64,000 nucleotides of DNA from Squalus acanthias. Its lineage: Eukaryota. Every line of letters starts with the position of its first letter. Position 1 is the stretch's first letter. Location of the stretch: the NCBI GenBank assembly GCA_030390025.1, contig CM059431.1:125986001-126050000 (forward strand), read 5' to 3'. Below are positions 1,400-45,337 of this stretch, one piece after another. The position numbers and the translations under genes were made by a program. The notes beneath the pieces were generated by a model, which did no database searches, was not told where the DNA came from, and saw only the letters and a program-made list of their open reading frames with translations.

Positions 1400-3116
1400 T
1401 CTGTGTCTGTCTTCACGGAAGAAGATGCAAAAAACTTCCCAGAAATAGTGGAGAGGCATGGGTCTAGCGAGAATGAGGAATGAATGAAAGAAATTATTAT
1501 TAGAAAAAAAATAGTACTAGAGAAATTAATTGGACTGAAAGCCAATAAATCCCCTGGACCTGATGGCCGACATCCTAGGATTTTGAAAGAGGTGGCTATA
1601 GAGATAGTGGATGCATTGGTTGTCATTTTCCAAAATTCCATAGATTCTATAACGGTTCCCGGGGATTGGAAGGTAGCAAATGTAACCCCTCTACTTAAGA
1701 AAGGAGGGAGAGAGAAAACGGGGAACTACAGACCAGTTAGCCTGACATCAGTAGTAGGGCAAATGCTAGAATCGATTATTAAGGATGTGGTAACAGGGCA
1801 CTTAGAAATAATAATAGGATTGGGCAGAGTCAATACGGATTTCTGAAAGGGAAATCGTGTTTGATGAATCTGTTAGAGTTTTTTGAGGTTGTAACTAGCA
1901 GAATAGATAAGGGGGAACCAGTGGATGTGGTGTATTTGGATTTTCAGAAGGCATTCGATAAGGTGCCACACAAAAGGTTATTAAACAAAATTAGGGCTCA
2001 TAGGATTGGGGGTAATATACTAGCATGGATTGAGGATTGGTTAATGGACAGAAAACAGAGAGTAGGAATAAACAGGTCATTTTCAGGTTGGCAGGCTGTA
2101 ACTAGTGGTGTACCGCAAGGATCAGTGCTTCGGCCTCAGCTATTCACAATTTATATCAATGATTTGGATGAGGGGACCAAATGTAATATATCCAAGTTTG
2201 CTGATGATACAAAGCTGGGTGGGAATGTAAGTTGTGAGGGGGGATGCAAAGAGGCTTCAAGGGGATATAGGCAAGCTAAGTGAGTGGGCAAGAACATGGC
2301 AAATGGAATATAATGTGGAGGAATGTGAAGTTATTCACTTTGGTAGGAAAAATAGAAAAGCAGAGTATTTTTTAAATGGTGAGAGATTGGGAAATGTTGG
2401 TGTTCAGAGGGACCTGGGTGTCCTTGTACACGAATCACTGAAAGTTAACATGCAGGTACAGCAAGCAATTAGGAAATCAAATGGTATGTTGGCATTTATT
2501 ACATGAGGATTTGTGTATAAGAGTAAAGATGTCTTACTGCAATTATATAGGGCCCTGGTGAGGCCACACTTGGAGTATTGTGTACAGTTTTGGTCTCCTT
2601 ACCTAAGGAAGGATATACTTGCCAAAGAGGGAGTGCAATGGATGTTCACCAGACTGATTCCTGGGATGGGGGGATTGTCCTATGAGGAGAGATTGAGTAG
2701 ACTAGGCCTATATTCTCTGGAGTTTAGAAGAATGAGAGGTGATCTCATTGAAACATACAAAATTCTTACAGGGCTTGACAGGGTAGATGCAGGGAGGATG
2801 TTTCCCCTGGCTGGGGAGTCTAGAACCAGGGTCATAGTCTCAGAATAAGGGGTCAGCCATTTAGGACTGAGATAAGGAGAAATTTCTTCACTCAGAGGGT
2901 GGTGAATCTTTGGAATTCTCTACCCCAGAGGGCTGCAGATGCTCAGTCGTTGAGTATATTCAAGACAGAGATCGATAGATTTTTGGATATTAAGGGAATC
3001 AAGGGATATGGGGAGTTGAGGTAGAAGATCAGCCATGATCTTATTGAATGATGGAGCAGGCTCGAGGGGCCAAATGGCCTACTCCTCCTCCTATTTCTTA
3101 TGTTCTTATGTTCTTC
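1400..3116 (+). mobile_element. CR1 LINE, 3' half of ORF2 (RT) and 3' UTR, frameshifted
   Basis: Fragments [63 protein letters not shown]. Tail is (TTCTTATG)n near 3095-3112. Confidence 0.95.
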
Positions 3117-3614: not shown

Positions 3615-4610
3615 CTAGTTGATACAACCTTGCTCACAGGACAATTCAGTACGATGGTTATGGAATGGTTTCAACTCTGCGTCCATACACTGATCAGTCC
3701 ATCCAGTAAAGGTCTTTTCATTCACTCTTTTCAGTACTGAGTCCTTTTGAGTCTCATCTGCAATCTCAGTTGCATTCACAGGAAAGTCTTTGTCAACTGC
3801 ACCTAGCGTGAAAATCACACCCTCACTCCCAACACACGAGTCCTCATGTGGTAACCTGGACAAGGCATCTGCGATTGTGTTTTGCTTTGAATTGCGATAT
3901 TCAATCGTGTAGTCATATTGTGACAACAGCACTGCCCAATGTTGCATTCTTGACGCGGTCATTGCAGGGATGGCAGATTTGGACCCCAATATTGCTAGGA
4001 GCGGTTTGTGAATGGTTATCAGGATAAACTTTCTGCCGATCAGGAACTGTTGGAATTTCTTGATTCCAAACACCACGGCGAGTGCTTCCTTTTCAACTTG
4101 ACCGTAGTTTCTTTCGGTCTTTGTGAGGGTTCGCAATGCGAACGCAATTGGTTTCTCTTGGCTGTCATCCATTACATGGTTTATGACAGCTGCCACACCA
4201 TAGCGAGATGCATCACACGCTAACTTAAGCTCATGCTCTGTGTTGTAGTGCACAATTAGAGCATCCCTAGAGAGACTTCTCTTACAAGTGTTGTAAGCTT
4301 CCTGTTGTGCTTTCATCCACTTCCACTGGACATCCTTCTTGAGGAGCTTGTGCAATGGAGCTAACATGGTCGCTAACTCAGGTAAGAACCCTGCGTAGTA
4401 CTGGACCATTCCAAGGAAAGATCTTAACTCAGACACGTACTTTGGCTTTGGAGCATTGATGACAGCATCAACCTTTTCCTTAACTGGTTGCAAGCCATTT
4501 GCATCAACTTTCAGACCAAAGTACACAACCTCGGGCTGCACAAAAGCACATTTGCTGCTTTTCAATTTGACATTGTGGGAATTCAGCCTTTGAAGCACTA
4601 AATCTAACAC
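3615..4610 (-). pseudogene. Gypsy pol fragment (RT C-terminus, RNase H)
   Basis: 331-aa ORF with ELRSFLGMVQYY, CDASRYG, ERNYGQVEKEALAVVFG and ADALSRLP. Confidence 0.9.
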
Positions 4611-5426
4611 TTCTAGATTTTCTTCCTCGCTGCTTGTTGCGATCAGCCCATTACCTTGATTGCATAAGCAATTTGGAATTCCTTACAAAATCTTATCCAT
4701 CGTAGTCTGGAAGATTTTGGGGGAGGACTTTACACCATATGGCAGCTTGGTGAATTAATATATTCCCTTGTGTGTGTTGATGGTGAGATACTTTTGACTC
4801 TCTTTGTCAACATTCAGCTGAGCGTAAGCATGCAACAAGTCAAGCTTGGAGAAAACCTTTGACCCAGCGAGTGCTGCATACAAATCTTGCAATGTAGGTA
4901 ATGGGTACTGCTAATCGTCAACTGCTTGGTTGGTAGTAACTTTGTAGTCACCACACAAATGTTAGTTTTGTCTGCTTTGGGCACTACCACAATCGGGGTA
5001 GCCCATTCACTTTTGTCAGTTTTTACTAGCACTCAGTTTTCTCTGAGCTTCGCTAGCTCTTCCTCCACCTGACTTTTCAACGCATAGGGGACCGGCCTTG
5101 GACTTGATGCAGATATGCGCGCCATACCCAGTGGTGCCCTCATAACTGTCTGTGAACATGCTTTCGTACTTCTTCAGCATTGTGTCGAGTCACTTCTTTG
5201 AAGCATCTACACTGAAGATATTTTCCAGTCTAGTTTTAACTTTCTCAACCAGTCTTTGCCCATGAGAGTTGGCCTGTTGTTGTAGCTCGCTACAATAATG
5301 GGCAGCTTTACTGACTGGCCATTGTGTTGAACTGTACATTCCATTTGTCCACATGTCTCTAGAATTTCTCCAGAGTAGGTTTTTAACTCTACGGTACTCC
5401 TTGTAAGTGGTATTTGATTAAACTTA

Positions 5427-19716: not shown

Positions 19717-20897
19717 AATCACGGCATAAACATCTTCCTTGTAATGCACAGTGTTTTTTGTGACTTAGATGATTCAAAGGGCTTATAATTGTAGAGTGTT
19801 CTGAACTAAGAACATAAGAACATAAGTATTAGGAGCAGGAGTAGGCCATACGGCCCTTTGAGCCTGCTCCGACATTCAATAAGATCATGTCTGATCTTCG
19901 ACCTCAACTCCACATTCCCGCCCGAGCCCATATCCCTTGATTCCCCTAGAGTCCAAAATTCTATCTATCTCAGCCTTGAATTTACTCAATGACTCAGCGT
20001 CCACAGCCCTTCGGGTAGAGAATTTCAAAGATTCACAACCCTCCAAGTAAATAAATTCCTCCTCATCTCAGTTTTAAATGTCTGACCCCTTATCCTGAGA
20101 CTATGCCCCCTAGTTCTAGACTCTCCAGCCAGGGGAAACAACCTCTCAGCATCTACCCTGTCAATCCCCCTCAGAATCTTATATGTTTCAATAAGATCAC
20201 CTCTCATTCTTCTAAACTCCAGAGTATAGGCCCAATCTATTCAATCTCTTCTCGTAGGACAACCCTCTCATCCCAGGGATCAATCTCGTGAGCCTTCGTT
20301 GCACCGCCTCTGAGAAATGTATGTCCTTTCTCAGATAAGGAGACCAAAAATGTGCACCGTACTCCAGGTGTGGTCTCACCAAAGCCCTGTACAATTGTAG
20401 TAAGACTTCCTTACTCTTGTACTCCAACCCCCTTGCAATAAAGGCCAAAATGCCATTTTCCTTCCTAATTGCTTGCTGTACCTGCATGCTAACTTTTTGT
20501 GTTTCCTGTAGGAGGACACCTAAATTTCTCTGAACAGCAACATTTAATAGTTTCTCACCATTTAAAAAATATTCTGTTTTTCTATTCTTCCTACCAAAGT
20601 GAATAACCTCACATTTCCTCACATTATACTCCATCTGCCACCTTATTGCCCACTCACTTAACCTGTCTATATCCCTTTTGTAGCAAAACAACTTTTGCTG
20701 ATTAAGATTGGCTATCATTATGCTTGGCCAAATTTTTAATGGACCAGCATGCCTTAAGAGACTGAAGGCTGTGTTGCTGGGCAAATTCCGTAATCAACAG
20801 ATAAGGAATGAGGTGTTGCAAGACAAACTTAATTAAACAATGGAACCGTCTCGATGACCCCTGACCAAATGAAGTAAGCCGACATGTGCAAAAGGTC

Positions 20898-21275
20898 CTT
20901 CTCGTGTTTACATTTATATTTTATTTTTTCCACCCTTTTATTTGCCCCCCCCACCTTTTTTTTCCTCCTAGAAGCTGGCAGCTGTCCTTCATTCTGCCAG
21001 TGGATTTCACACTTCTTTCAGCCTTAATCTGTCACATTAACACCACCTCTAGCCTTGCATATCTCTTAATGTCTCTTAATGTCTCTTCATCTCCCCCTTT
21101 GTTCTTTTATCCCCTCCCCCTTTTCCCAGCTTTACCCTGGCCTTAAATCTATTTGATTTCCGGCTCTTCCCAGTTCTGACGAAAGGTCATCGACTTGAAA
21201 CGTTAACTCTCTTTCTCTCTCCACGGATGCTGCCTGGCCTGCTGAGTTTTTCCAGCGTTTTCTGTTGTTATTTTA
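20898..21275 (+). mobile_element. Penelope-like 3' pLTR fragment
   Basis: Homologous to the reverse complement of 11123-11400. 12-bp TSD GTGCAAAAGGTC at 20886-20897 and 21276-21287. Confidence 0.88.
21172..21208 (+). ncRNA. Minimal type I hammerhead ribozyme motif (Penelope-associated)
   Basis: AGUU-CUGACGA-A-AGGUC(AUC)GACUU-GAAA-CGUU-AACU. Both core boxes are intact, with stem II, stem I and palindromic AACGUU. Confidence 0.75.
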
Positions 21276-23808
21276 GTGCAAAAGGTCGTCTGGTGGAAAA
21301 GTAACAGAACCAACCAACAGATTTGGACACATGCCAAGAAAAGCATATAAAAGGGGAGAGTTAACAACCAGACGGGGCTGCAGTCGGGAGGAGGTGGCCT
21401 GGCCAGTCATCTCACCTACGAGGATTAGCCTGCAGTCGGAAGAGGGGTGTGACTTGGTCGGCCAGCCCAAGGAACCTACAATCAACACGAACTGACCATC
21501 CATGGGTGATCGTATGTATATCCTATCTGTAAATATGTTAGTGGTGATGTGCATTGTATTGCAATACGTTTAGTTTTGACATTGTATTGTAACCCTTGAT
21601 CTCTGATGTCTCAATAAAGTTGAGTTAAGTTGGAATCCGCGTTTTATCAATTACTCACTTATAATCCTCGGGTCAGAATCTTAAACCTGTGATGTCCCGA
21701 AAGGACTCTGCAGGCTCTTTGTGTCCTCCTCACATCTTACTTTCCCACCTAGCTTTTTATTGTCAGCCAACTTGGATACATTGCACTCGGTCCCTTCATC
21801 TAATCATTAATATAGATTGCGAATAGCTGAAGTCCATGCACTGATCCTTGTGGCACCCCACTAGTTACAGCCTGATAACCGGCAAATTACCTGTTTATCC
21901 CTACTCTCTGTTTTCTGTCCGGTAACCAATCCTCTATCTATGCTAATATATTACCCCCAACCCCATGAGCCCTTATCTTGTGTAGCAACCTTTTGTGTGG
22001 CATAAATTTGTTAAACACGATTTCCCTTTCATAAAACCATGTTGACTCTGCCTAATCATATTATGACTTTCTAAATGCCATTACCACTTCCTTAATAATG
22101 GATTCCAGTATTTCCCAATGACTGATATCAGGCTAACTGGCCTGTAGTTCCCTGTTTTCTCTATTCCTCCTTTCTTGAATAGCGGGGTTATATTTGCTAC
22201 CTTCCAATTCACTGGGACCGTTCTGGAATCTAGAGCTGTTAAGAGGCTTCTGTCAACATACGTTTTTTCATGGGGGTCCTTTTGGCAATTCCACACTTGC
22301 AAGAGGAAGCGAAGGAGCAGCAACAGCAAGGAGGGAGCAGAAAGAGCTAAGCTGCAGGGAGAGTAAATCGAATGAGGTATGCTTGCAAGAATCCTTAGCC
22401 TTCCAATCGAGTGTATAGGCCCATGACAACATACCTGAACTTCTCCAAGAAACAGTGCATAATGAGGCTTTGCTTCTCTATGGAGGCTGTGACAGAGTTG
22501 TGTTGCCTCCTGCAACAAGACAAGGTATTGCCTGTTGCACTCAAGATCACTGCAGCCCTGAACCTCTTTGCCTCAGGCTCCTTCCAGGATGCCACAGGGG
22601 ATATCAATAACATATTAATTATCCACCTGTTGTGCGGCCATAGTGCCTGTCTTCAGTGTACTTTTACCAACTTTAGTGCTTCTATAAGGTGCAACACCAG
22701 TGGCTGCAGCATTGGAGGTGGAAGGATCCTGCACCTCAGTTCATGAGATGCTCATAGTCAGTTACCTCTAGGAACTCGGATCTGACAGAGTCCGGCTGCA
22801 GATTACAGCAACTCAGCAGCTGTCAAGGCGGCTTGGCCCATCTGGCTTTCAGTCATCAGGGCAGGCATCGTTGAGAGGTGCTGTGATCCTGAGAGATGGT
22901 CTCATGTTCCATTCCTATTGCACGACTGCCCCTGCTATCAGGCTGTGACTCACCACTCCTACTGACCAATGAGAGAGCAGACTGTAGGACATTCCTATCC
23001 ATTTGGTCTCAAATCTGCCCAAGACAGAGGAGATAGTGAAGCCCAATGATTGCATGGCCCCAGTATGAGCATTCTGAGAGATAATGGAATTAACCCGATT
23101 TTGGGCCTTGGGCCTCATTAACATAGGATTGGTGAGCTGCAGATACCTGCTGGGCATCCCCAGGCAGCTCGCCAGTGAAGAACATTTGAATTTGGGGTCA
23201 CTGCATTGCTGGGAGATCAGGTAGGTCTTGGGAGAATCAGGGGAGGTGCAACCAGGAGAGGGGAGTGATTGGGAGAGGGGAGTGATTGAGAGAGGGGAGT
23301 GATCGGTGGCCAGCAGCAGTCCCTGGTTTAAATGTGGAGACAGGAGGAGCACTTCTGTACCTCTGGGCTCCACATTCAGGTAAGTATTTTTTTAAAACTT
23401 ACCTTTTTGGTGGCGAACTGCAGCGGTCCCTATTAGAAACAATGGTTAGGCTGCATGTAGACCTGATTTTCCTGAACACAGTCAGCCTGGTGCTAGCTTC
23501 GTTCAGGACAAATCAATCTGGTAAAGGACGCATTGAACAGGCGTTAGACCTTGGAGGCTCTAGGTATAGGCAAGAAGTCTAACACCTGCTCCAGGTGTGG
23601 CTCTTGGAGGCCTCTTTTGATGCCCATACCAATATGGTGGATGATGCACTACTGGTGTGGAATGTGCGTGCGCATGCAACCCGCCATACTGGATGCTTTG
23701 GAGCGTGTTTTGCTGCTGTAAAATGGGGAGCAACATCATTGAATTTCTAGGCAACTCTTCCTCGTGCCACATACTCCTGCAGGGAGTGCCCAGCTACAAT
23801 GTCCATTG

Positions 23809-25531
23809 TGTAAGGGATTCCTGATCCTGCGTGTCTCGCAGCCTGTGAGATTCACGCGGCTCTGTGCAGCCTGTATGTCAGTGCGGGTCTAGGCCTTGCT
23901 GCCTGTTCTGGTCTCCAGCCAGTCTGGGAACACTAGACACACCTGTGAGTGGTTCGAATCACTCTCCCTTACGGTTCTAGACACTGGACTTAGATGCGAG
24001 AGCAGTAATGGAGATAAAAACTCATGTAGGCTTGGTTTGACTGGTACGAAATGGAAAATCTTTATTGCATGATACTTAAAATTATGAAATACATGTCATA
24101 AGCACAGATTAATGACAGTACAATCTTACAAACAGTTATGTAGTCGATCTTAGGGAAACGAGGAACGAACGGCACAAAGTAAATAGGGGCACACATTACA
24201 AATATCCTTAATCCTTAAACCCTCCCCTATCAATATCTATCCTAAACTAGATTCGTAGGATCTCGAGACTCATGCTCACCACTCGTGATAACTCGGAGAA
24301 ATTCCGAATAGCTGATCGGATGTTTTTCACCGCAGCACCCACGTGTCGGTCAGGAGATCTCCTGGTCCCACTTGTTTACTTGCTTCTGCTGCTCCGGCTA
24401 GCAGGCTGGACCGTCTGCTGTGATGAAGACCTGTGTTGGTTGGCTTAACAGGTACTCTTCGAGCACAGTTGTCAATATCGTCGATACGATATGTTTTCAC
24501 GTTCCAGTTACTTTGGGCACAGTCCAGTTATCATCGATGCAATATGTTTCGTTGCAAGTTCAAGAGAAGTCTTCCTGGCGAGGAAAACTTGGCTAATCGA
24601 CCTACAGGCGCGGTCGGGATTTTACTGACCGTGGCGATGGATATGGTCTTCCTCTCTTCTCATCTCATCTCATCTCATCTCATCTCATCTCGGGCCTTCG
24701 GTTCCGCTGCCAGTTACCAACATAGGTCTTCGTTACGCGACACGAGGTAGATCCGAACGGATCAGAAAATGCAACAGTCTTTTCAGAAGAGGCAACAGGC
24801 AAGCAGAAGCCCAACTACGAGTACACAGGAGCAGGCACGAGGTTACGAATCGACCGGATAAAAGCACAGGAGCCAGCGAGCAAGAGCAAGAGCGAGAGAG
24901 AGAATGGGCGGTTTGGAGCCTGCAATTATAGTGCAAAATCTTCCGTTTCCCGCCCAACTATAATGTCCATTCTTTTGTTTAGGGTTTGGCGCCCAAATGT
25001 CTTGTATAGGTGATCTCCGTTCTTAATGGGTTTCGGGGCTACTCGTAAATGTCTGAGTACCTGTTAATATTTCTCCCATTGTTAAATCGGTCGGTGTTCT
25101 CCCTGGAGGGGTTTGGGGCTTCCAAGTGTCCTGTATAACTACCTGCTAACGGCTCTCTCATCGTAGAGTCGTTGGGATTTTACATATTAATGTCTTTTGG
25201 ATGGGCCCTTGATTACTCGGTACAATGGCTTTCCTTTGTACCTGGGAGACCGATTTCAGTATCTATGTGTATACTGCAAACCCATAATGTCTCGTGTATT
25301 ATCTTCACTGTGCTGAATCTTAATCGATCTTGCACAAATGTTTATTGGAACGCCATCTTGTCTGCCTGTTGAAGAGTCTAGAATGTTCTGTCACGAGGTG
25401 CGGCGGCCATTTTACAGGCTGCTTGTGTCCACTTTAAACCTGCCAGCATTCTGCTGAAAATAAAAGCTGTTTGAACGAAACTCTGTGTTTTCTCCTTATT
25501 AACAAAATCGCGATATATTGCGAATTCTACA
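23809..25531 (-). mobile_element. Long solo LTR (1723 bp), ERV-like
   Basis: TGTAAGGGATTC...GAATTCTACA termini and perfect 4-bp TSD ATTG (23805-23808, 25532-25535). Minus-strand AATAAA at about 24061 and TATA-like at about 24925. Confidence 0.85.
24657..24691. repeat. (CATCT)n pentanucleotide microsatellite inside the LTR
   Basis: CATCTCATCTCATCTCATCTCATCTCATCTC read directly. Confidence 0.95.
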
Positions 25532-26402
25532 ATTGTGGTGATCACATCCTCCATGGTTGACTACAGATTGTCGATGACAAACACTAAAACCCCACATAAT
25601 TTGGTAGTGATCTTCTCCACACTCTCTGACATTTTGCGGATGCTCCCTGGCAGGTAGTTCAATGCATTGGGGTAATTGCTGGTACACGTAAAGCATCAGG
25701 GCTCCTAAAGTTTGCATCCCTGTCCTCTTTGGCAGAACTACGATGCAAGGTTGCCCTCCATTGAGCAGTTTTCTGGCCCGTCCTTGCCATCTGTACCTGC
25801 TCCTATTCACTTGTGCTCGGTAAATCGTCCAGTGCAGAGCTCTGTAACTCACCAGCTATACCATGCAGATTGCTGATTTCTGTACCGATGGTTGGAAGAG
25901 TGTGAGTGAGTAATCTTCTGATGAGTTCTCCCCCTGTGACTGCAAGGACCAAGTCATCTGATGGACCTAGAGAAAGGGGAGATGGACAAACGTTAGCATG
26001 AAGTGACAGGGTAAGCAATAATAGATCAGTGGCAGTGCAGTGTGACACCAGGTTATATTGTTCAGTGTGTGAGTGAGAAAGTTACGTAGACATCGAAAAA
26101 GGGAAGGTGCACTTGCTGTGCCTGCCCTCCAGCCTAGTCATCTCGCATGCTGCGTACCCTCTCTCCAGCAATGCTGTTGATGGCGGCCTCTTCCATTAGC
26201 ACCAGTGTCTGTAGAGTGAAAGTATCTTTTCCTTCCATCATACTCCCCTTTCTGTTGTGTGCCAGCTTGTCCTGCAAGCAGAGTGGAAGTCGGTTAGTCT
26301 GTGCCCTAATTGAGGGCTTTAAAGATGCCTGAGGCAGCTTAGCCAAGTGTGCATGATGAGAGGAAGAAGCAGCAACTGTGGCCAAGAGGGGGAAGTAGTT
26401 GT

Positions 26403-29400
26403 AAGAGTACAGAGAACAGGATAGTTAGGCTAAATACGTGGCTTGAGCAGTGGTGTAAGAGGGAGGGTTTTAAATTTTTGAGGCATTGGAAATAGTTTTG
26501 TGGTAGGTGTGACCTATACAAAAGGGACGGTCTACACCTATGCAAAGATGGAACTGATGTTCTCGGGGTAATTTTTGATAAAGCAGTTCGGGAGCATTTA
26601 AACTAGTATGGCAGGGGGCTAGAAACCTATGTAGTGAAATAGAGGAAAGTGAAAGGCAGACAGAAATAAATGGTAAAAGGGTGAGGAACAAAAAACAAAG
26701 GGCCAAACTAATTCATAAAAAATGTGAGCATAAAAAAAGCCTGAGGGTTTTATACCTTAATGCGAGAAGCATCAGGAACAAGGTAGATGAATTAGCTGTG
26801 GAAATAGAGGTTAATAATTATGATCTAATTGGGATTACGGAAACATGGTTGCAGGGTGAGCAGGGCTGGGAGCTTAACATACAGGGGTATTCAGTATTTA
26901 GGAAGGATCGACAAAAAAGAAAGGGAGGAGGGGTAGTATTGCTGGTAAAAGAGGGGATAAATGCAATTGAAAGGAAGGATATTAACTCAGTTAATACAGA
27001 ATCTATATGGGTGGAGCTAAGAAATAGCGAGGGGCGAAAAACATTAATAGGAGTGGTATATAGGCCTCCAAATAGTAAAATAGAGGTTGGGGAGGGCATC
27101 ACGAGGGAAATTAGAGAAGCGTGCAATAAGAGCACAGCTGTCATCATAGGTGACTTTAACTTACATATAGATTGGACTAGCCTAATCAGTAAAAATAATG
27201 AGGAGGAGGAATTCCTTGAGTGTTTAAGGGATGGTTATCTGGATCAATATGTCGAGGAACCAACTCGGGAACAGGCTATATTGGACTGGGTACTGTGCAA
27301 TGAGAAGGGACTAATTAGTAATCTTGTTGTACGGGGACCCTTGGGTCAGAGCGATCATAACATGATCGATTTCTCACTCGAAATGGAGAGCGAAGAAATT
27401 GACTCAGAGACTAAGGTCCTGAATTTAAACAAGGGGAATTATGATGCCATTAGACGGGAACTGAGTAGGTCTGATTGGACAACGTTCCTGGGAGGACTGG
27501 AGGTAGATAAACAATGGCAAGCATTTAAAGATAGAATGACAAAATTGCAAAAATTGTTTATACCAATCTGGCATAAAAGGAAATCTAAAAAGGTGACTCA
27601 ACCGTGGATAACAGGGGAAATTAGAGACAGCATAAAATCCAAAGATAGGGCGTATAAAATAGTCAAAAAAAGCGCCAGAGCGGAAGATTGGGAACAGTTT
27701 AAGATAGAGCAAAGGAGGACAAAGGGCTTAATCAAGAGGGGCAAAATAGCTTATGAAAGCAAGCTGGCGGAAAATATAAAAACTAACTCCAAAAGCTTTT
27801 ATAAGTATATCAAGAGGAAAAGACTGGTGAAAACCAAAGTTGGTCCATTGCAGTCAGATACGGGGGAATATATAACGGGAAATAAGGAAATGGCAGACCA
27901 ACTAAATGCATACTTTGGGTCAGTCTTTACGAAGGAAGACACAAAAAACCTCCCTGGGATATCGGGAAAAATAGGGACATTGGCAAAGGAGGAACTGATG
28001 CAAATCAATATCTCTAAGGATATGGTGTTAAGGAAGCTAAAGGGATTGAAGGCGGACAAATCCCCAGGGCCTGATAACATGCATCCTAGGGTACTGAAGG
28101 AGGTGGCCCTAGAGATAGCGGATGCACTAAGTATGATTTTTCAGAATTCATTAGACTCGGGAACAGTGCCCATGGATTGGAGGGTAGCTAACGTTACCCC
28201 ACTATTCAAAAAGGGGGGTAGGGAAAAAACAGGTAATTACAGACCTGTAAGCCTTACATCAGTTGTGGGCAAAATGCTGGAGTCCATCATTAAGGATGAA
28301 ATAGCGGAGCACTTAGCAAATGGGGACAGGATAGGACAGAGTCAACATGGATTTACAAAGGGTAAATCGTGCTTGACTAATCTATTGGAATTTTTTGAGG
28401 GAGTAACTGGTAAAATAGATGGGGGAGAGCCAGTAGATGTGGTGTACCTGGACTTCCAAAAGGCCTTCGACAAGGTCCCACATAAAAGATTAGCATGGAA
28501 AATTGAAGCTCATGGGATAAAGGGGAAAGTATTGACGTGGATAGAGAACTGGCTGTCAGATAGAAAACAGAGAGTTGGAATAAACGGCTCATTTTCTGAA
28601 TGGCAGGCAGTAACAAGTGGGGTACCGCAGGGATCTGTCCTGGGTCCCCAGCTGTTCACAATTTACATTAATGACCTGGATCAGGGAGTCGGATGCAGCA
28701 TTTCCAAATTTGCAGACGACACTAAACTAGGAGGGGGGGTGGGCTCAGAGGAGGAGACCAGGAAGCTCCAGAGCGATTTAGACAGACTGGGTGATTGGGC
28801 GGATAAATGGCAGATGCACTATAATGTGTACAAGTGCGAAGTTATCCACCTTGGGTGCAGGAACGGGAGGGCAAATTATTATTTAAATGGCAATAAATTG
28901 GGAGAGGGGGAAGTACAGAGAGACCTGGGTGTTCTTGTACACCAGTCACTGAAGGCGAGCATGCAGGTGCAACAGGCGGTCAAGAAGGCAAACGGTATGC
29001 TGGCCTTCATAGCAAAAGGGTTGGAATACAGGAACAGGGATACCTTGCTGCAGCTGTACAGGGCACTGGTGAGACCACACCTCGAGTACTGTGTACAATT
29101 TTGGTCGCCTCATCTGAGGAAAGATGTTCTTGCCATGGAGGGGGTGCAGCGGCGATTCACCAGGCTGATACCAGGAATGGCGGGATTGACCTATGAGGAG
29201 AGACTATGTAGTTTAGGGATGTACACACTGGAGTTTAGAAGATTGAGAGGGGACCTCATAGAAGTGTATAAAATTCTGACAGGTCTAGACAGACTAGATG
29301 CAGAAGGAATGTTTCCCTTGGCAGGTGAGAACAGAACTAGAGGACATAATTTAAGGATAAGGGCTAAACCATTTAGGACAGAAATGAGGGGGAATTTCTT

Positions 29401-29642
29401 CACTCAGAGGGTGGTGAACCTGTGGAACTCATTGCCACAGAGGGCAGTGTACGCCAGCTCATTAAATATATTTAAGAGGGAATTAGATATATTTCTACAG
29501 GCAAAAGGGGTTAAGGGTTACGGAGAGAAGGCGGGGACGGGATACTGAATTGGAGGATCAGCCATGATCTCATTAAATGGCGGAGCAGGCTCGAAGGGCC
29601 GGATGGCCTACTCCTGCTCCTATCTTCTATGTATCTATCTAT
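26403..29642 (+). mobile_element. Young CR1 LINE, 5'-truncated within ORF1, complete ORF2
   Basis: ORF1 C-terminus (LNTWLEQWCKREGF..LYKRDGLHL..EHLN*, SGNH esterase-like), intact ORF2 and (CTAT)n-type tail. TSD GTAGTTGT at 26395-26402 and 29643-29650. Confidence 0.97.
26681..29548 (+). CDS. CR1 ORF2: APE endonuclease plus reverse transcriptase (955 aa; frame actually open from 26582)
   Basis: YLNARSI, GITETW, GDFN, LDWVL, SDH (APE); [30 protein letters not shown] (RT). No stops or frameshifts. Confidence 0.95.
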   Translation: MRNKKQRAKLIHKKCEHKKSLRVLYLNARSIRNKVDELAVEIEVNNYDLIGITETWLQGEQGWELNIQGYSVFRKDRQKRKGGGVVLLVKEGINAIERKDINSVNTESIWVELRNSEGRKTLIGVVYRPPNSKIEVGEGITREIREACNKSTAVIIGDFNLHIDWTSLISKNNEEEEFLECLRDGYLDQYVEEPTREQAILDWVLCNEKGLISNLVVRGPLGQSDHNMIDFSLEMESEEIDSETKVLNLNKGNYDAIRRELSRSDWTTFLGGLEVDKQWQAFKDRMTKLQKLFIPIWHKRKSKKVTQPWITGEIRDSIKSKDRAYKIVKKSARAEDWEQFKIEQRRTKGLIKRGKIAYESKLAENIKTNSKSFYKYIKRKRLVKTKVGPLQSDTGEYITGNKEMADQLNAYFGSVFTKEDTKNLPGISGKIGTLAKEELMQINISKDMVLRKLKGLKADKSPGPDNMHPRVLKEVALEIADALSMIFQNSLDSGTVPMDWRVANVTPLFKKGGREKTGNYRPVSLTSVVGKMLESIIKDEIAEHLANGDRIGQSQHGFTKGKSCLTNLLEFFEGVTGKIDGGEPVDVVYLDFQKAFDKVPHKRLAWKIEAHGIKGKVLTWIENWLSDRKQRVGINGSFSEWQAVTSGVPQGSVLGPQLFTIYINDLDQGVGCSISKFADDTKLGGGVGSEEETRKLQSDLDRLGDWADKWQMHYNVYKCEVIHLGCRNGRANYYLNGNKLGEGEVQRDLGVLVHQSLKASMQVQQAVKKANGMLAFIAKGLEYRNRDTLLQLYRALVRPHLEYCVQFWSPHLRKDVLAMEGVQRRFTRLIPGMAGLTYEERLCSLGMYTLEFRRLRGDLIEVYKILTGLDRLDAEGMFPLAGENRTRGHNLRIRAKPFRTEMRGNFFTQRVVNLWNSLPQRAVYASSLNIFKRELDIFLQAKGVKGYGEKAGTGY

Positions 29643-30454
29643 GTAGTTGTGAGAGCAGCAGCAGGTGTTGAGTGTGCGAGTGTAAGCACAAAGAAGGTGC
29701 ACTGAAGTGTTCCATACTGACTTGAGGAGCAGCATGGGAAGAAGGGAAGGGAAAGGTTGATAGTGCTGCGGATAAAGTAGGATGGTGCAGGGCTGTGCAG
29801 AGAGCAAGGCAGATGTGAAGGGGTGTCAGCCAGGTTTTGGGGACAATGATTGTGACAATGACTTGCGCTGCCAACTCTCACCATGCCGGCTGACTACTTT
29901 GTCTCGGCACCTGTTGCCCATCGGAGGGGAAGCGAACCTCTGTCCTCCTGTTCTCTAGGTCAATGAGCACCTCCACCATTGTATCCGGGAATCTGGGGGC
30001 TCTGGTAGAAGTCATCCTGCCTCATGCTACACAATATCGGTGTCCCCTATTTACCATTGAAAATAGCATCTCCCCTTTAAGGTACTGCAGGCTGCCTTTA
30101 ATTGGCAACTGGCCTGCTAGATTTCCTGCTTTCCCAATTGGTGAGCTACCTATAGGGAGCACATGCTGGAAGCTTATCAATTTAATTTAAATTAGGCCCG
30201 ACCATGACATTGGCACAAACCAAATGCCGATTTCTTCGGCTAGACAGAGCACACACCCCGCTCACTGACGACTCGGTTAATGTTGTATTTGATAAATCAC
30301 CCCCATGTGTTAGGTTTTGACCCAGACACTAGTGGGTAGAATTTTCACCGGGGTTCCCTGATCTCCTGCTGTAACTCCGGCGGAAGATCGGCAGAAACAA
30401 TGGAAAAATGGTAGGATTGGCTGTTTGTGTCATGACTTCGAGGTTCCTGACAAT

Positions 30455-32303
30455 CTTCAAGACAGAAAGCAGAGAGTAGGGGTAAAGGGTAGCTATTCAG
30501 AGTGGCAGAAGGTGGGAAGTGGGGTTCCACAAGGATCAGTGCTGGGACCGCTGTTGTTCATAATTTATATTAATGATTTAGACGTTGGAATAAAAACACA
30601 ATTTCTAAATTTGCGGATGACACCAAATTGCGGGGGATAGCCAATACTGAGGAGGACTGCAACAAATTACAAGAAGATATTAATAAACTTGCAGAATAGG
30701 CAAATAATTGGCAAATGAAATTCAACATGGATAAATGTGAGGTGTTGCATTTTGGTAAGAAAAATAGGGAGGTCACTTATTACTTGGAAAATAATGGGGA
30801 GAAATTCATTATAGCCCCGTTTGGGGCACTAACTTCTAAAAGTTGAAAAAATGATTGCCAGGCACTAACGTTTCTCAACTGTTAAAAAATTCAGTTTTGC
30901 GCTCCAGGAGGGAAGTGAAGCGCTAAATCAAACGCTCCACTTCCTTCCTGGAGTGCAACAGGCAGCAGGCGGGGTGGTAGGTGAGCAGCGCTGCACACTG
31001 GGCCGAGCAATGCTGCCGCGTTGGAAGGCTCCTTCCCTCCCTTAAAGGGAAGCACCATCGCTGCAGGCTCTGCAAGGAAACAATGTACCTGGACCCAGAC
31101 GGTAGCTACGATCCAGCCTGACCAGTCCGATGCAATGCAGCAGAGTGCCGGGCTGATCGAGCTGGGGAAAAAAAAGCAAAAAAAAATGAACGAGCATTTG
31201 ATAATTTTTTTCCCTACCTCGGCCACCTCGCCTTTAAGTATCGCCCCCAAAACGCCCGGCCTCCCGATGAACGTCTCCTGTAGCTGCCGGTGTTGTCACC
31301 CGGCGATGTTGCAGGGGGTGATACAGAAGTTTGGGTCCAGGGCACAACCGGGATGATGCGCACGGCGATGACTTCACGATCTCCGGGCGAACGAGATCAG
31401 GGCGCAACGCCATACCGCCGCCACAAACCTCCTGATGAATTTAGTGGGAGGCAATATTCTCGCCGCGCCCGAACAGTAAGTGGTTAGTGCCACATTATCG
31501 CCCCCCCGGTGGCAATAACGGGAGGCGCAAAGGTACCCAATTTCTCCCCCTATGAATCTAAATGGGGTAGAGGAACAAAGGGATCTAGGAGAACAGATAC
31601 ACAAATCACCAAAAGTATCGACACAGGTTAACAAGGCCATAAAAAAAGCAAACCAAGTACTAGGGTTTATTTGCAGAGGGATACAACTGAAAAGTAATGA
31701 AGTTATGTTAAACTTGTATCGTACCTTGGTTAGACCACACTTGGAGTACTGTGTGCAATTCTGGTCACCATATTATAAAAAGGATATAGAGGCACTGGCG
31801 AGGGTGCAGAGAAGATTTACGAGGATGATACCAGAAATGCGAGGGTACACCTATCAGGAAAGGATGAACAGGCTGGGTCTCTTTTTGCTTGAAAAGAAAA
31901 GGCTGAGGGGTGACCTAATAGAGGTCTTTACATTCATGAAAGGTTTTGATAGAGTAAATACAGAGAGAGTGTTTCCACTTGTGGGGAAGAGCAAAACTAG
32001 AGGCCATCAATATAAGATAGTAACCAAGAAATCAAATAGGGAATTTAGAAGAAACTTCTTTACCCAGAGAGTGGTGAGAATGTGGAACTCACTACCACAG
32101 GAAGTGGTTGAAGCGAATAGTACAGATGCATTTAAGGGGCGGTTAGATAAGCATATGAGGGAGAAGGGAATAGAGGGTTATGCTGATTGGGTTAGATGAG
32201 GAAAGATGGGAGAAGGCTCGAGTGGAGTAGAAACACCGGCATGGACTGGTTGGGCTGAATGGCCTGTTTCTGTGCTGTATATCCAATGTAATCCTATGTA
32301 ATT
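30455..32303 (+). mobile_element. CR1 LINE 3' portion (different subfamily), split by a MITE
   Basis: [38 protein letters not shown]. Tail TGTAATCCTATGTAA. Confidence 0.93.
30795..31550. mobile_element. Harbinger-type MITE
   Basis: TIR (T/G)GGGGAGAAATT, TSD TAA/TAT. Related to 5427-6187. Removing it restores CR1 YLEN.NLNGVEE. Confidence 0.88.
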
Positions 32304-38410: not shown

Positions 38411-39722
38411 TACAGCTGCTTGAGTCGTCCGGCTCCTTCTCCTTGACCTGCTGCTGCTGGCTGAGACGGCTGCACAGCCAGCAATGATGAGAATGAGTTT
38501 CTGCAGCATCAATGAACCTCCCCTTTAAGAACTGGAAAGAGCCTGTGGCAATGATGACTTGTGATTAGACTGCACCTGATATTGGTCAGCGCTTTGAGTT
38601 TAATGCCACTGAGCTAGGCCATTAGTGCTAGCTTTAGTGCTCCAATTCTTTCTTTGTGCAAGGAGACTTTATTTTGCGTGCAGTCTGAAGCATTAGCGTC
38701 TGGTGCTAATTCTCAAACTTTTCAAAAGTTACCGCCCATTCCTGGGCTATAATGAATTTCTCCCCCTAAGAGCCAAAAGAGATCAAAGGTAATAATGGTT
38801 AGGCACCGTTGAGGCGGTTTTTGTCCGGACATGTGTAGCTACTTTACTTGAATTGTGTCAGCCCTGAACTCTTTACTGTGAAGTTAGCCTTTTTAATCCA
38901 AGGTAGTAATGAACTTGCAGAGAAACCATGTTTATAAGCAGTTATATAGAAGCAGATGCAATTCCTTCCAATGATTTTCAAAAGGAATATTATTTCTGTA
39001 ATCATCTTTTCAAAGCCAAGGCAATAGCAGATCAAATTATAAAAATCTATGCAGCTTAAATTTCTGAATACTCACCTAATTAAATAACTTATTCATCTTT
39101 GAGAAGCAATCATTAAACCAATTTGAGGAAAAATTCTGATAATTAGAGGTGAAATGAATAAAATAGAGTAAGGAAGGTAAAATATGAATACTTTCACCAA
39201 TTTGACATTTGACTTTGAAGCCGTAACAATGAGCTCTCAGGCAAAACAGAAAGGCAAATTTTCTCCATTAAAGCCTCCTGCTTATTTCCTTGGTCCAGTA
39301 ATCACAGAGCTAATTGACCGACTTCCAGCCCCCAGTATGAGTCTTGCTCTCCGAGAGCACATATTGAAAATTAAGGTGTGTGCTGTACATGATTATAAAT
39401 GGTTAGAAAATCAGGGGTGATGTTTGCTTGCACTTTTATCGTGTGAGTTCCCCCAACAGAAAGCAAAGTCAGAAAATTATCCTTCATATTTTATAAGTTC
39501 CCTTTTGAGTATCGGATTACTCCTAAGCGATAAAACTACAGTCAAAAAAATATTAGTGAGAGGTCAAATTGTCTTGCCTGCAGTAGTGGCATCGTGTTAT
39601 TGGTGTCCAATAGAAAATTGTCTTTTGGGCATCAATTTTCAATGGGCTTATTTTTCCTGAATCACAATTTTGATGAAGCATCTATGGGTTAGAGTTTCCA
39701 TGGGGATTTGTAAGAACACTGT

Positions 39723-40919
39723 GGTTCCACCACAGACCCAATTCATGTACAGACCGGGGTCAAGCAAGGCTGTGTCATTGCACCAACGCTCTTCTCGATC
39801 TTCCTTGCGGCAATGCTCCATCTCACCCTCAGTAAGCTCCCCGCTGGAGTGGAGCTAATTTACAGAACAAACGGGAAACTGTTCAACCTCTGTCACCTCC
39901 AGTCCAGATCCAAGGTCGTCCCTTCCTCTGTCATCGAATTACAGTATGCAGACGATGCTTGCGTCTGCGCACACTCGGAGGTCGAACTCCAAACCATCGT
40001 TAACACCTTCACCGAAGCGTACAAGAGCATGGGCCTTACACTAAACATCCGTAAGACAAAGATCCTCGACCAACCTGCCCCCGCCACACAGTACTGCCCC
40101 CCGATTATCAAAATCCATGACAAGGCCTTGGACAACGTGGACCACTTTCCATACCTCGGGAGCCTACTGTCAACAAGGGCAGATGTCGATGACAAAGTCC
40201 AACACCGCCTTCAGTGTGCCAGTGCAGCCTTCGGTCGCCTGAGGAAGAGAGTGTTTGAAGACCAGGACCTCAAACCCAGCACCAAGCTCATGGTCTACAG
40301 AGCAGTAGTAACACCCACCCTCCTGTATGCCTCAGAGACATGATCCATGTACAGCAGGCACCTTAAAGAACTGGAGAGGTACCACCAACGCTGCCTCCGC
40401 AAGATCCTGCAAATCCATTGGCAGGATAGGCGCACCAACGTCAGTGTTCTCGCTCAGGCCAACATCCCCAGCATCGAAGCTTTGACCACACTCGATCAGC
40501 TCTGATGGACGGGTCACATCGTCCGCATGCCCAATACGAGACTCCCAAACGAAGCGCTCTACTCGGAGCTCCAACACGGCAACAGAGCCCCAGGTGGGCA
40601 GAGGAAACGCTTCAAGGACACCCTCAAAGCCTCCTTGAAAAAGTGCAACATCCCCACCGACACCTGGGAATCCCTGGCCCAAGACCGTACAAAGTGGAGG
40701 AGAAGCATCCGGGAAGGCGCCGAATACCTCGAGTCTCTTCGCCGGGAGCAAGCGGAAGCCAAGCGCAAACAGCGGAAGGAGCGCACGTCAACCAAAGCAC
40801 CCCGCCTGTGACAGAGACTGTAGGTCCCGCATTGGACTCATCAGTCACCTGAGAACTCATTTTTAATGTGGAAGCAAGTCATCTTTGGTTCCGAGGGACT
40901 GCCTCAGAAGAAGAAGAAG
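39723..40919 (+). mobile_element. RTE-clade LINE, 5'-truncated
   Basis: GVKQGCV, LQYADD, FPYLGS, YRAVVTPTLLYASET, GGQRKRFKDTLK. Tail is (GAA)n at 40906-40919. Confidence 0.93.
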
Positions 40920-43804: not shown

Positions 43805-44160
43805 GAAACATCGAATCTTACAGCACAGAAGGAGGCCGTTCGGCCCAGCATGCCTGTGCCAGCTCTGCGAAAGAGCTAGCCAATCAGTCCCACTCCTGCT
43901 CTTTCTCCAAAGCCCTGATTTTTTTTTCTTTTTAAGTATTTATCCAATTCCCTTTTGAAAGCTATTATTGAATTGCTTCCATCACCCTTTCAGGCAGTGC
44001 ATTCCAGATCATGACAACTCGCTGTGTAAAGAAAATTCTCATCTCCCCTCTGGTTCTTTGCCAATTACACTAAGTCTGCCTCCTCTGGTTACCAACCCCC
44101 CTGCCAGGGAAACATTTTCTCCCTATTAACGCTATCAAAACGCCTCATTATTTTGTATAC
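43805..44160 (-). mobile_element. CR1 3' end fragment, diverged
   Basis: GAATCTTACAGCACAGAAGGAGGCCGTTCGGCCC..CAGGCAGTGCATTCCAGATC is the reverse of a CR1 3' UTR. Confidence 0.75.
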
Positions 44161-45337
44161 ATTACATAAATGTCTGTATATTTTTAGCAGTATGTATAGT
44201 TTTTAGCTTATATTTTGTATCTCTTAGAACTTGCAATTCCATGTAATATATTGTAACAATCCTGAGGGGCAAAGCTGTGGGAAGGTGGTTGTGTGGTCCA
44301 TTCCACTTCTGGAGAAGGGGCAGGAGAAGCTGGGTATAGAAGGAAATAAGCAGTATGTTTTGGGGGAGAGAGAGAGAGAGAGAGCACAACAGGGGAGGCA
44401 GAGAGCTGCTCAGTTGCTGACTTGTATCATTGGTACTGGTTATTGTTCCACACACTGTTCTACATATATAGCCATGTTTGGAGCTGTTCTGGAAGAAGTT
44501 GAAGACCTTCTTAACCAATGTTTATGGGTACATTCCAGGCTCTCATAGAAACACTCAAGTCACCTTTGGATGTCCTTATTCAAACATTATTCCTCAATAC
44601 AGTAAACATTTTGCACTTCGCTGAGTAAAAAAAATCTCCTCATCTCCCCTCACTTCTTTTACATTCTCCGTTCTGTTTAATCCTGAGCTAAGCATCATTG
44701 TCACTACCAAGACTGCCTATTTCCACAATATCACTTGCCTCTGCCCCATCTCACCCCTACTGCCGCTGAAACTTTTATCTATGTCTTTGACAACCTCCAG
44801 ACTCAATGGGCTGGATTTTGAATGACACGTGGAGTCGGGTTTGGAGGCGTGTGGGGGGTTAAAGTAGCAGATTCGGGGGTCCCGACCCCATCCCGACTCC
44901 AACATGCCTCCACGCAATTTTGACAAAATCGGTCGCGGGGTTCCCGACTCCGTCCCGCCTCCAAGAGGCGGGAGAGGCCATTAACTCCCTTAACAATCCC
45001 TAAAGTGGCTCAGTAATGCCATTTTGAAGCTTTTTAGGTAGTTTAACCCTTTTCCCACGTGAAGCACACCTGATGGGAAACACTCCAGTGAAACCTGGCG
45101 GGAGCACAAGTGCATTGCTGACTCTCAGCTGCAGCTCAACTTTTAAATAGGAGATTTGATCAGCCATCAATTGCAGGTGGCAGGACTTTGTTGTCACAGG
45201 TTTGGGGGAACATTTAGAAGGCATAACCGCAGCTCTGGAAGTTTGGAGCCTGACACCCATCTGCAGTGTGACCTCCTGGGAACCGCCTCTCGCCACTCTC
45301 ATTGAGGGCTTCCTCAACTGAGACCTATACCAGAGGC

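Follow-up and report, generated by a model that had tools for sequence, protein, structure and literature searches.

CR1 retrotransposons are the commonest jumping genes in sharks and reptiles. How LINEs make the product of their second open reading frame (ORF2) is still debated, with reinitiation the presumed route in L1 and SART1. In the covered parts of earlier reports, synthesis of L1 ORF2 has been ascribed to AUG-independent initiation and that of HeT-A gag to frameshifting (PMC5009743), a +1 frameshift or reinitiation has been suggested for Paramecium LINEs (PMC5405496), and it has been argued that the functions of ORF1 have to be produced separately from ORF2 (PMC3708506). The closest described elements are the type IVB CR1 LINEs (CR1 subgroup 7), in which, according to the covered part of PMC4120745, an ORF1 with a leucine zipper or zinc finger and an esterase is followed by an ORF2 encoding an apurinic endonuclease (APE) along with a reverse transcriptase (RT), and copies show 5' truncation and a simple-repeat tail. 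No mechanism of ORF2 expression for type IVB CR1 is given in the covered parts of PMC4120745, PMC11835228, PMC4255032, PMC2734521 and PMC8665684, and CR1 is absent from that of PMC5009743. Across the literature covered, which did not extend to the 1997 chicken and turtle CR1 papers, we found no proposal of -1 frameshifting in CR1. Reportedly, the 1997 turtle paper noted a short overlap of the two ORFs, and a passing suggestion of frameshifting may exist.

Beyond LINEs, the gag-pol junctions of retroviruses and LTR elements and the 1a/1b junction of nidoviruses offer close parallels. As in CR1, an in-phase X_XXY_YYZ heptamer from the same set stands at the end of the structural ORF, and the polymerase ORF lies in the -1 frame without a start of its own; CR1 differs in being a non-LTR element and in that neither a hairpin nor a pseudoknot is apparent at 5-9 nt downstream. 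The -2/-1 frameshift in PRRSV nsp2, which is stimulated by PCBP and nsp1beta, likewise has an unstructured 3' region and a linear motif behind a 10-nt spacer (covered part of PMC4937337), although that motif is C-rich where the CR1 motif is G-rich, the CR1 heptamer is U_UUA_AAC, and for CR1 no trans-acting protein is known. L1 and SART1 share with CR1 a bicistronic LINE RNA and low-level ORF2, whereas the CR1 ORFs overlap in the -1 register at a slippery heptamer, with no in-frame start near the stop.

The copy that we analysed lies in a 64,000-nucleotide stretch of the Squalus acanthias genome (the window), on the forward strand at 26401..29642. It is a 5'-truncated CR1-type LINE of a young family, with nine siblings at 99% identity, whose matches begin at 26399-26401 in seven and at 26540 in two, and it is flanked by an 8-bp target-site duplication (26395..26402 and 29643..29650). 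Only the 3' end of ORF1 remains (26401..26606), encoding the C-terminus of an SGNH esterase, and the upstream part of ORF1 common to the siblings is missing; an in-frame TAG at 26493 is absent from all seven anchored siblings. An intact ORF1 is not present here, which corrects the preliminary description; truncated at about 26401 and with a stop at 26493, the copy is itself untranslatable and the signal discussed below is a property of its family. Full-length ORF1s with a zinc finger and an SGNH esterase were found in siblings L002, L003 and L007. In L002, ORF1 has 315 residues, with a zinc finger and Lipase_GDSL_2 (PF13472); the zinc finger, as read from sibling ORF1, is CX2CX16CX2C, after which the esterase follows. 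The closest named ORF1 homologs come from cartilaginous fishes, and homologs are present in rays, sharks, bony fish, turtles, lizards and frog.

The ORF2 frame (26582..29548, 988 aa) contains the APE endonuclease at residues 60-259 and the reverse transcriptase at residues 546-756 (Pfam PF03372, PF14529 and PF00078), and is followed by a 3' UTR (29549..29642) with a stem-loop (dG -34.8, without shuffle control) and a simple-repeat tail in place of poly(A). Classified by its architecture and not by placement in an RT tree, the element is a CR1 LINE with a type IVB ORF1: the APE-RT ORF2, the zinc finger/esterase ORF1, 5' truncation, the target-site duplication and the simple-repeat tail were all found. 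Five older CR1-like ORF2 fragments (1406-3103, 19830-22239 on the reverse strand, 30455-30864, 31570-32187 and 43888-44169 on the reverse strand; 33-79% protein identity) also lie in the window, none with an ORF1 junction. Two further open frames, 3618-4682 on the reverse strand (355 aa) and 39714-40340 on the forward strand (209 aa), have motifs which we take to resemble other retroelement reverse transcriptases.

At the junction itself the preliminary description read the sequence correctly. ORF1 (mod 3 = 0) ends ...EHLN* with T_TTA_AAC (26597..26603) in the X_XXY_YYZ phase, directly abutted by the stop codon (26604..26606), which is TAG here, with both TAG and TAA occurring among the families. 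Relative to ORF1, ORF2 lies in the -1 frame (mod 3 = 2), which is open across the heptamer and has no start of its own; from 26597 it reads FKL... and continues through an unconserved linker of 51 residues to the endonuclease (26597..26749). As had been claimed, its first in-frame ATG comes late, with the methionine being residue 261 (27362), 227 codons past 26681 and at the end of the endonuclease, and the nearby ATG at 26608 is out of frame, opening only four codons in the +1 frame.

TTTAAAC occurs 13 times on the two strands of the window together, so a single copy proves nothing and conservation is the test. From the 3.7-Gb genome we assembled 72 loci, 30 by DNA search, 30 through a distant ORF1 and 12 picked by hand from two 127-row tables, and located their junctions through the upstream DGxHL motif, independently of the heptamer. 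They fall into about nine families, divided partly by eye, which are mostly 55-75% identical where aligned over 250 nt, although some pairs gave no alignment. TTTAAAC stands immediately ahead of the ORF1 stop in 58 of the 64 anchored junctions, the six misses being substitutions or a deletion; among nine loci lacking the DGxHL anchor, inspection found the heptamer in seven and no junction in two. One locus, L021, carries within the G-run of its CR1 junction an insertion (L021:1-1501) that is 93% identical to a repeat of about 1.7 kb at 23808-25505 of the window, which has apparent TG...CA ends and which we presume to be solo-LTR-like.

In search of junctions from other animals, we scanned metagenomes with a pattern of ORF1 motifs only, which gave at least 57 stretches; of the 57 listed, 15 were esterase ORF1s by tblastn, one ending before the junction, and 42 were not CR1. 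The resulting 14 junctions have the exact heptamer in five, one or two substitutions in six and a rearranged site in three; 13 of these 14 come from one record set and are decayed copies closest to amniote ORF1s, which we assume to be bird-like. There was no CR1 among 47 prokaryote-genome matches, and a search of viral contigs for CR1 junction DNA of other taxa found none. In protein records of natural fusions, which come from a ray, a tortoise and a distant lineage, the ORF2 frame is read as FKL. Conservation of the heptamer and of the -1 register across CR1 families, on which the preliminary description had staked its proposal, was therefore borne out, both among the roughly nine families found here and in further vertebrate lineages, synonymous sites included. 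In position, phase and conservation the heptamer is far beyond chance, and the signal is real, family-wide and deeply conserved.

The constraint reaches the level of codons. Among 12 lineage representatives chosen from intact junctions (eight from this genome and four others, three of which were picked as intact among the 14 mostly decayed other-animal junctions), the last Leu codon is TTA in 12/12 and the Asn codon AAC in 12/12; the codon before them ends in T in all 12, though its residue varies among H, D, G and A. By comparison, these 12 encode the invariant Leu of DGxHL with six different codons. From ORF1 codon usage, the chance of this combination is about 0.014 per lineage, the lineages not being independent. 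Dual coding without a slip fails as an explanation, since the -1 frame closes 1-8 codons upstream of the heptamer in 11 of 13 representatives and none of the 13 has an upstream ATG, so that FKL is unreachable by normal initiation.

Distant ORF1 proteins extend the pattern. They end in LN in 95/120 homologs, with sharks, rays, bony fish, turtles, lizards and frog named, and in 103/119 of a second set, in which the tail is 29-39 aa long as against 26 and members named Ridgeia piscesae occur in 2 of the 10 clusters looked up. Thus, while the covered part of PMC4120745 places esterase ORF1s in vertebrate subgroups only, an LN-ending esterase is found here also in clusters named for this annelid, where the esterase ORF1 has an associated APE. 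The fused record of the distant lineage, from a cluster neighbouring the Ridgeia-bearing set, runs FKL-V-G-K-G-G into an endonuclease 38% identical to that of the window. Some annelid-related ORF1s (P0160, P0166, P0190, P0238, P0239 and P0377) have an SH3-like domain before the esterase, by Pfam marks and, in P0377, by sequence. A CR1-type ORF1 with 64% identity (P0011) is annotated as an SGNH hydrolase of Pseudomonas aeruginosa, a record that is probably host contamination.

A profile search of cluster representatives at 50% identity, of which we considered the best 150 of 18,632, used a profile (A2) built from LN-ending proteins and so favours LN-ending matches. The final residue was Asn in 82 of the best 150, where about 4% would be expected, although related sequences in these terminus counts are not independent. 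The 82 tails comprise LN (60), GN (11), KN (4), SN (2), EN (2) and three others, so that L, G or K precedes the final Asn in 75/82, whereas L, G, K or P precedes internal Asn in 24%. The 68 that do not end in Asn include many fragments, three ZfL2-1-like proteins and a group of eight that keep an internal KN, invariant and equally spaced, ahead of a variable tail, with the stop 2-12 codons later. The esterase of ZfL2-1 ORF1 (PDB 4C1B; covered part of PMC3905857) is homologous to the CR1 domain (E 3e-45); its closest rows (P0432, P0451 and P0478) do not end in X-N, and of the PDB chain the final two residues are not displayed. Other ORF1 tails without X-N (P0438, P0466, P0474, P0484, P0434, P0442 and P0494) have NF, FL, FF or GF at positions 23-28, which would be compatible with U-rich heptamers, or with chance.

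LN, GN and KN are the dipeptides of U_UUA_AAC, G_GGA_AAC and A_AAA_AAC, three of the four heptamers ranked among the shiftiest for mammalian ribosomes in the covered part of PMC5009743, and slippery sites may have been swapped; for the GN and KN lineages, heptamer covariation is read from protein and stays putative at the level of DNA. A T-ending codon is possible for the residue preceding LN in 59/60, 92/95 and 103/103 cases, the exceptions all being Glu (background 0.82 for the set of 60). Gln, which has no T-ending codon, precedes 9 of the 11 GN ends, and the preceding-residue test for GN alone gave 11/11 (p ~0.09, not significant). No long fused proteins of GN type appeared among 8000 scored, which is weak evidence. 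In a quick tree of 99 of the 150 representatives with complete tails plus eight references, terminal residues excluded, LN was clustered (11 changes against 35.6 when shuffled); the tree shows LN clustering only and gives no basis for claims about origin or transfer. Judged from codon invariance and from the alternation of LN, GN and KN, the heptamer is conserved beyond what the protein needs.

The frame into which a slip would lead is also under constraint. Across 12 lineages the stretch linking to the endonuclease ranges in length between 32 and 94 aa with the -1 register kept throughout, and over 687 linker codons there is one stop in the -1 frame as against 52 and 80 in the other two. The best surviving alternative, though an unlikely one, is termination-reinitiation, with an L1-like restart near the ORF1 stop without an AUG, the motif acting as a reinitiation signal and ORF2p being made as a separate protein. 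Such a mechanism has been described or favoured for other LINEs (SART1, with UAAUG, and AUG-independent initiation in mammalian L1, as far as the covered sources go), and in CR1 the stop does abut the motif, with an open linker from there onward. However, no AUG of the SART1 type lies in frame at or beside the stop, and neither an AUG nor a near-cognate codon is conserved near it in the ORF2 frame, which speaks against the independent near-cognate start that the preliminary description had named as able to overturn its reading. The ATG at +4 (26608) lies in the +1 frame and is missing from most families. Furthermore, reinitiation leaves unexplained the perfect in-phase X_XXY_YYZ, the LN/GN/KN alternation and the KN group whose stop comes 2-12 codons later.

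Still less probable is that the ORFs are joined in the RNA, by splicing, editing or slippage of the polymerase, or that ORF2 has a subgenomic transcript to itself. The AG that follows the motif in TAG-ending families and the in-frame Met before the endonuclease in 5 of 12 linkers would suit these readings, but the stop is TAA and not TAG in 8/12 representatives, on which ground a splice acceptor at the junction was rejected, and 7/12 linkers have no usable Met, the first in the window's family lying only where the endonuclease domain ends. To L003 we aligned four of 24 listed runs, two of them raw RNA runs of a related organism (24-31% of each covered) and two contig sets; at junction depths of about 87 and 120 in the two raw runs, neither a splice joint nor an indel reached 3% there. 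As these reads come from many, mostly dead copies and from both strands, they argue against splicing and slippage but do not thereby demonstrate full-length transcripts. The least credible of the alternatives, that ORF1 needs a C-terminal Leu-Asn for its fold, a degron or binding while ORF2 is made otherwise, can point to the invariance of L314 and N315 in alignment A1 (whose members were largely chosen as LN-ending) but is largely refuted by codon invariance, the codons being fixed beyond the residues, LN staying terminal at anything from 26 to 39 aa away from DGxHL, and the solved ZfL2-1 esterase aligning only to profile position 313 of 317, with close relatives that are not N-ending.

As the downstream stimulator, the preliminary description proposed a weak stem (GGCAGG..CCTATGT); its weakness was confirmed on L002 (dG -5.9, z +0.5), which stands for the window because the first 75 nt past the stop match, whereas its conservation across families was not. 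Nor did the covarying stems that had been suggested across junctions appear: none is shared, and folding of +8..+77 in 13 representatives gave no stable or conserved stem-loop (z -1.6 to +1.6; pseudoknots lie outside the fold model). The region 3' of the heptamer is instead purine-rich with few C, and what is conserved in it is a linear G-run 10 nt after the heptamer (26614..26618 in the window), with G at +18 in 15/17 lineage representatives, +19 in 14/17, +20 in 14/17, +21 in 17/17 and +22 in 14/17. Of these, +18 and +21 fall at third positions of ORF2 codons, and GGG accounts for only 32 of the 85 Gly codons in the window's ORF2. Gly coding may play a partial role in this conservation. Three other candidates were rejected: a G-quadruplex as common stimulator is predicted downstream in only 5/13 representatives, the best long-range partners of +11..+30 lie at unrelated places in ten sequences, and pairing with the 3' UTR stem ranks second best in the window only and would use a strand that is already paired. 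In its unstructured 3' region and its conserved linear motif about 10 nt downstream, the junction resembles protein-stimulated frameshifting of the PRRSV nsp2 type. As the stem-loop or pseudoknot of canonical sites was not found, we do not class it as canonical structure-stimulated frameshifting.

Taken together, we consider it very probable, from comparison of sequences, that full-length CR1 members make an esterase-APE-RT fusion by -1 programmed frameshifting; the fusion proposed in the preliminary description would thus apply to these members and not to the truncated copy in the window. Translation would start at the ORF1 AUG, and the majority of ribosomes would terminate right after U_UUA_AAC to release a zinc-finger/esterase protein of about 315 aa. 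A minority would slip back one base as the tRNAs for Leu and Asn pair anew with UUU and AAA, pass the stop, and read on through the flexible 32-94-aa linker into the endonuclease and reverse transcriptase. The product would be a Gag-Pol-like ORF1-ORF2 fusion, of about 1,296 aa (315 + 981) in the window's family, made at a constant low proportion; as no protease domain was found, this product may remain uncleaved. Not a local hairpin but the G-run 10 nt downstream would probably provide the stimulus, whether protein-bound, long-range paired or, in some families, as a G-quadruplex, and slow termination perhaps helps the slip. More tentatively, and at somewhat less than even chances, a whole branch of esterase-ORF1 LINEs, in jawed vertebrates and at least one annelid, may make its reverse transcriptase only as a frameshift fusion, swapping U_UUA_AAC, G_GGA_AAC and A_AAA_AAC and stimulated by a linear G-run 10 nt downstream instead of an RNA fold, a mechanism that would be undescribed.

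A conserved -1 frameshift in CR1 would mean that a major group of vertebrate LINEs follows the retroviral Gag-Pol plan, with a lipid-binding esterase tethered to the reverse transcriptase. It would explain why CR1 ORF2 frequently lacks a start codon and would correct the annotation of ORF2. Furthermore, nature would thereby offer numerous versions of a frameshift signal that has no obvious RNA fold.
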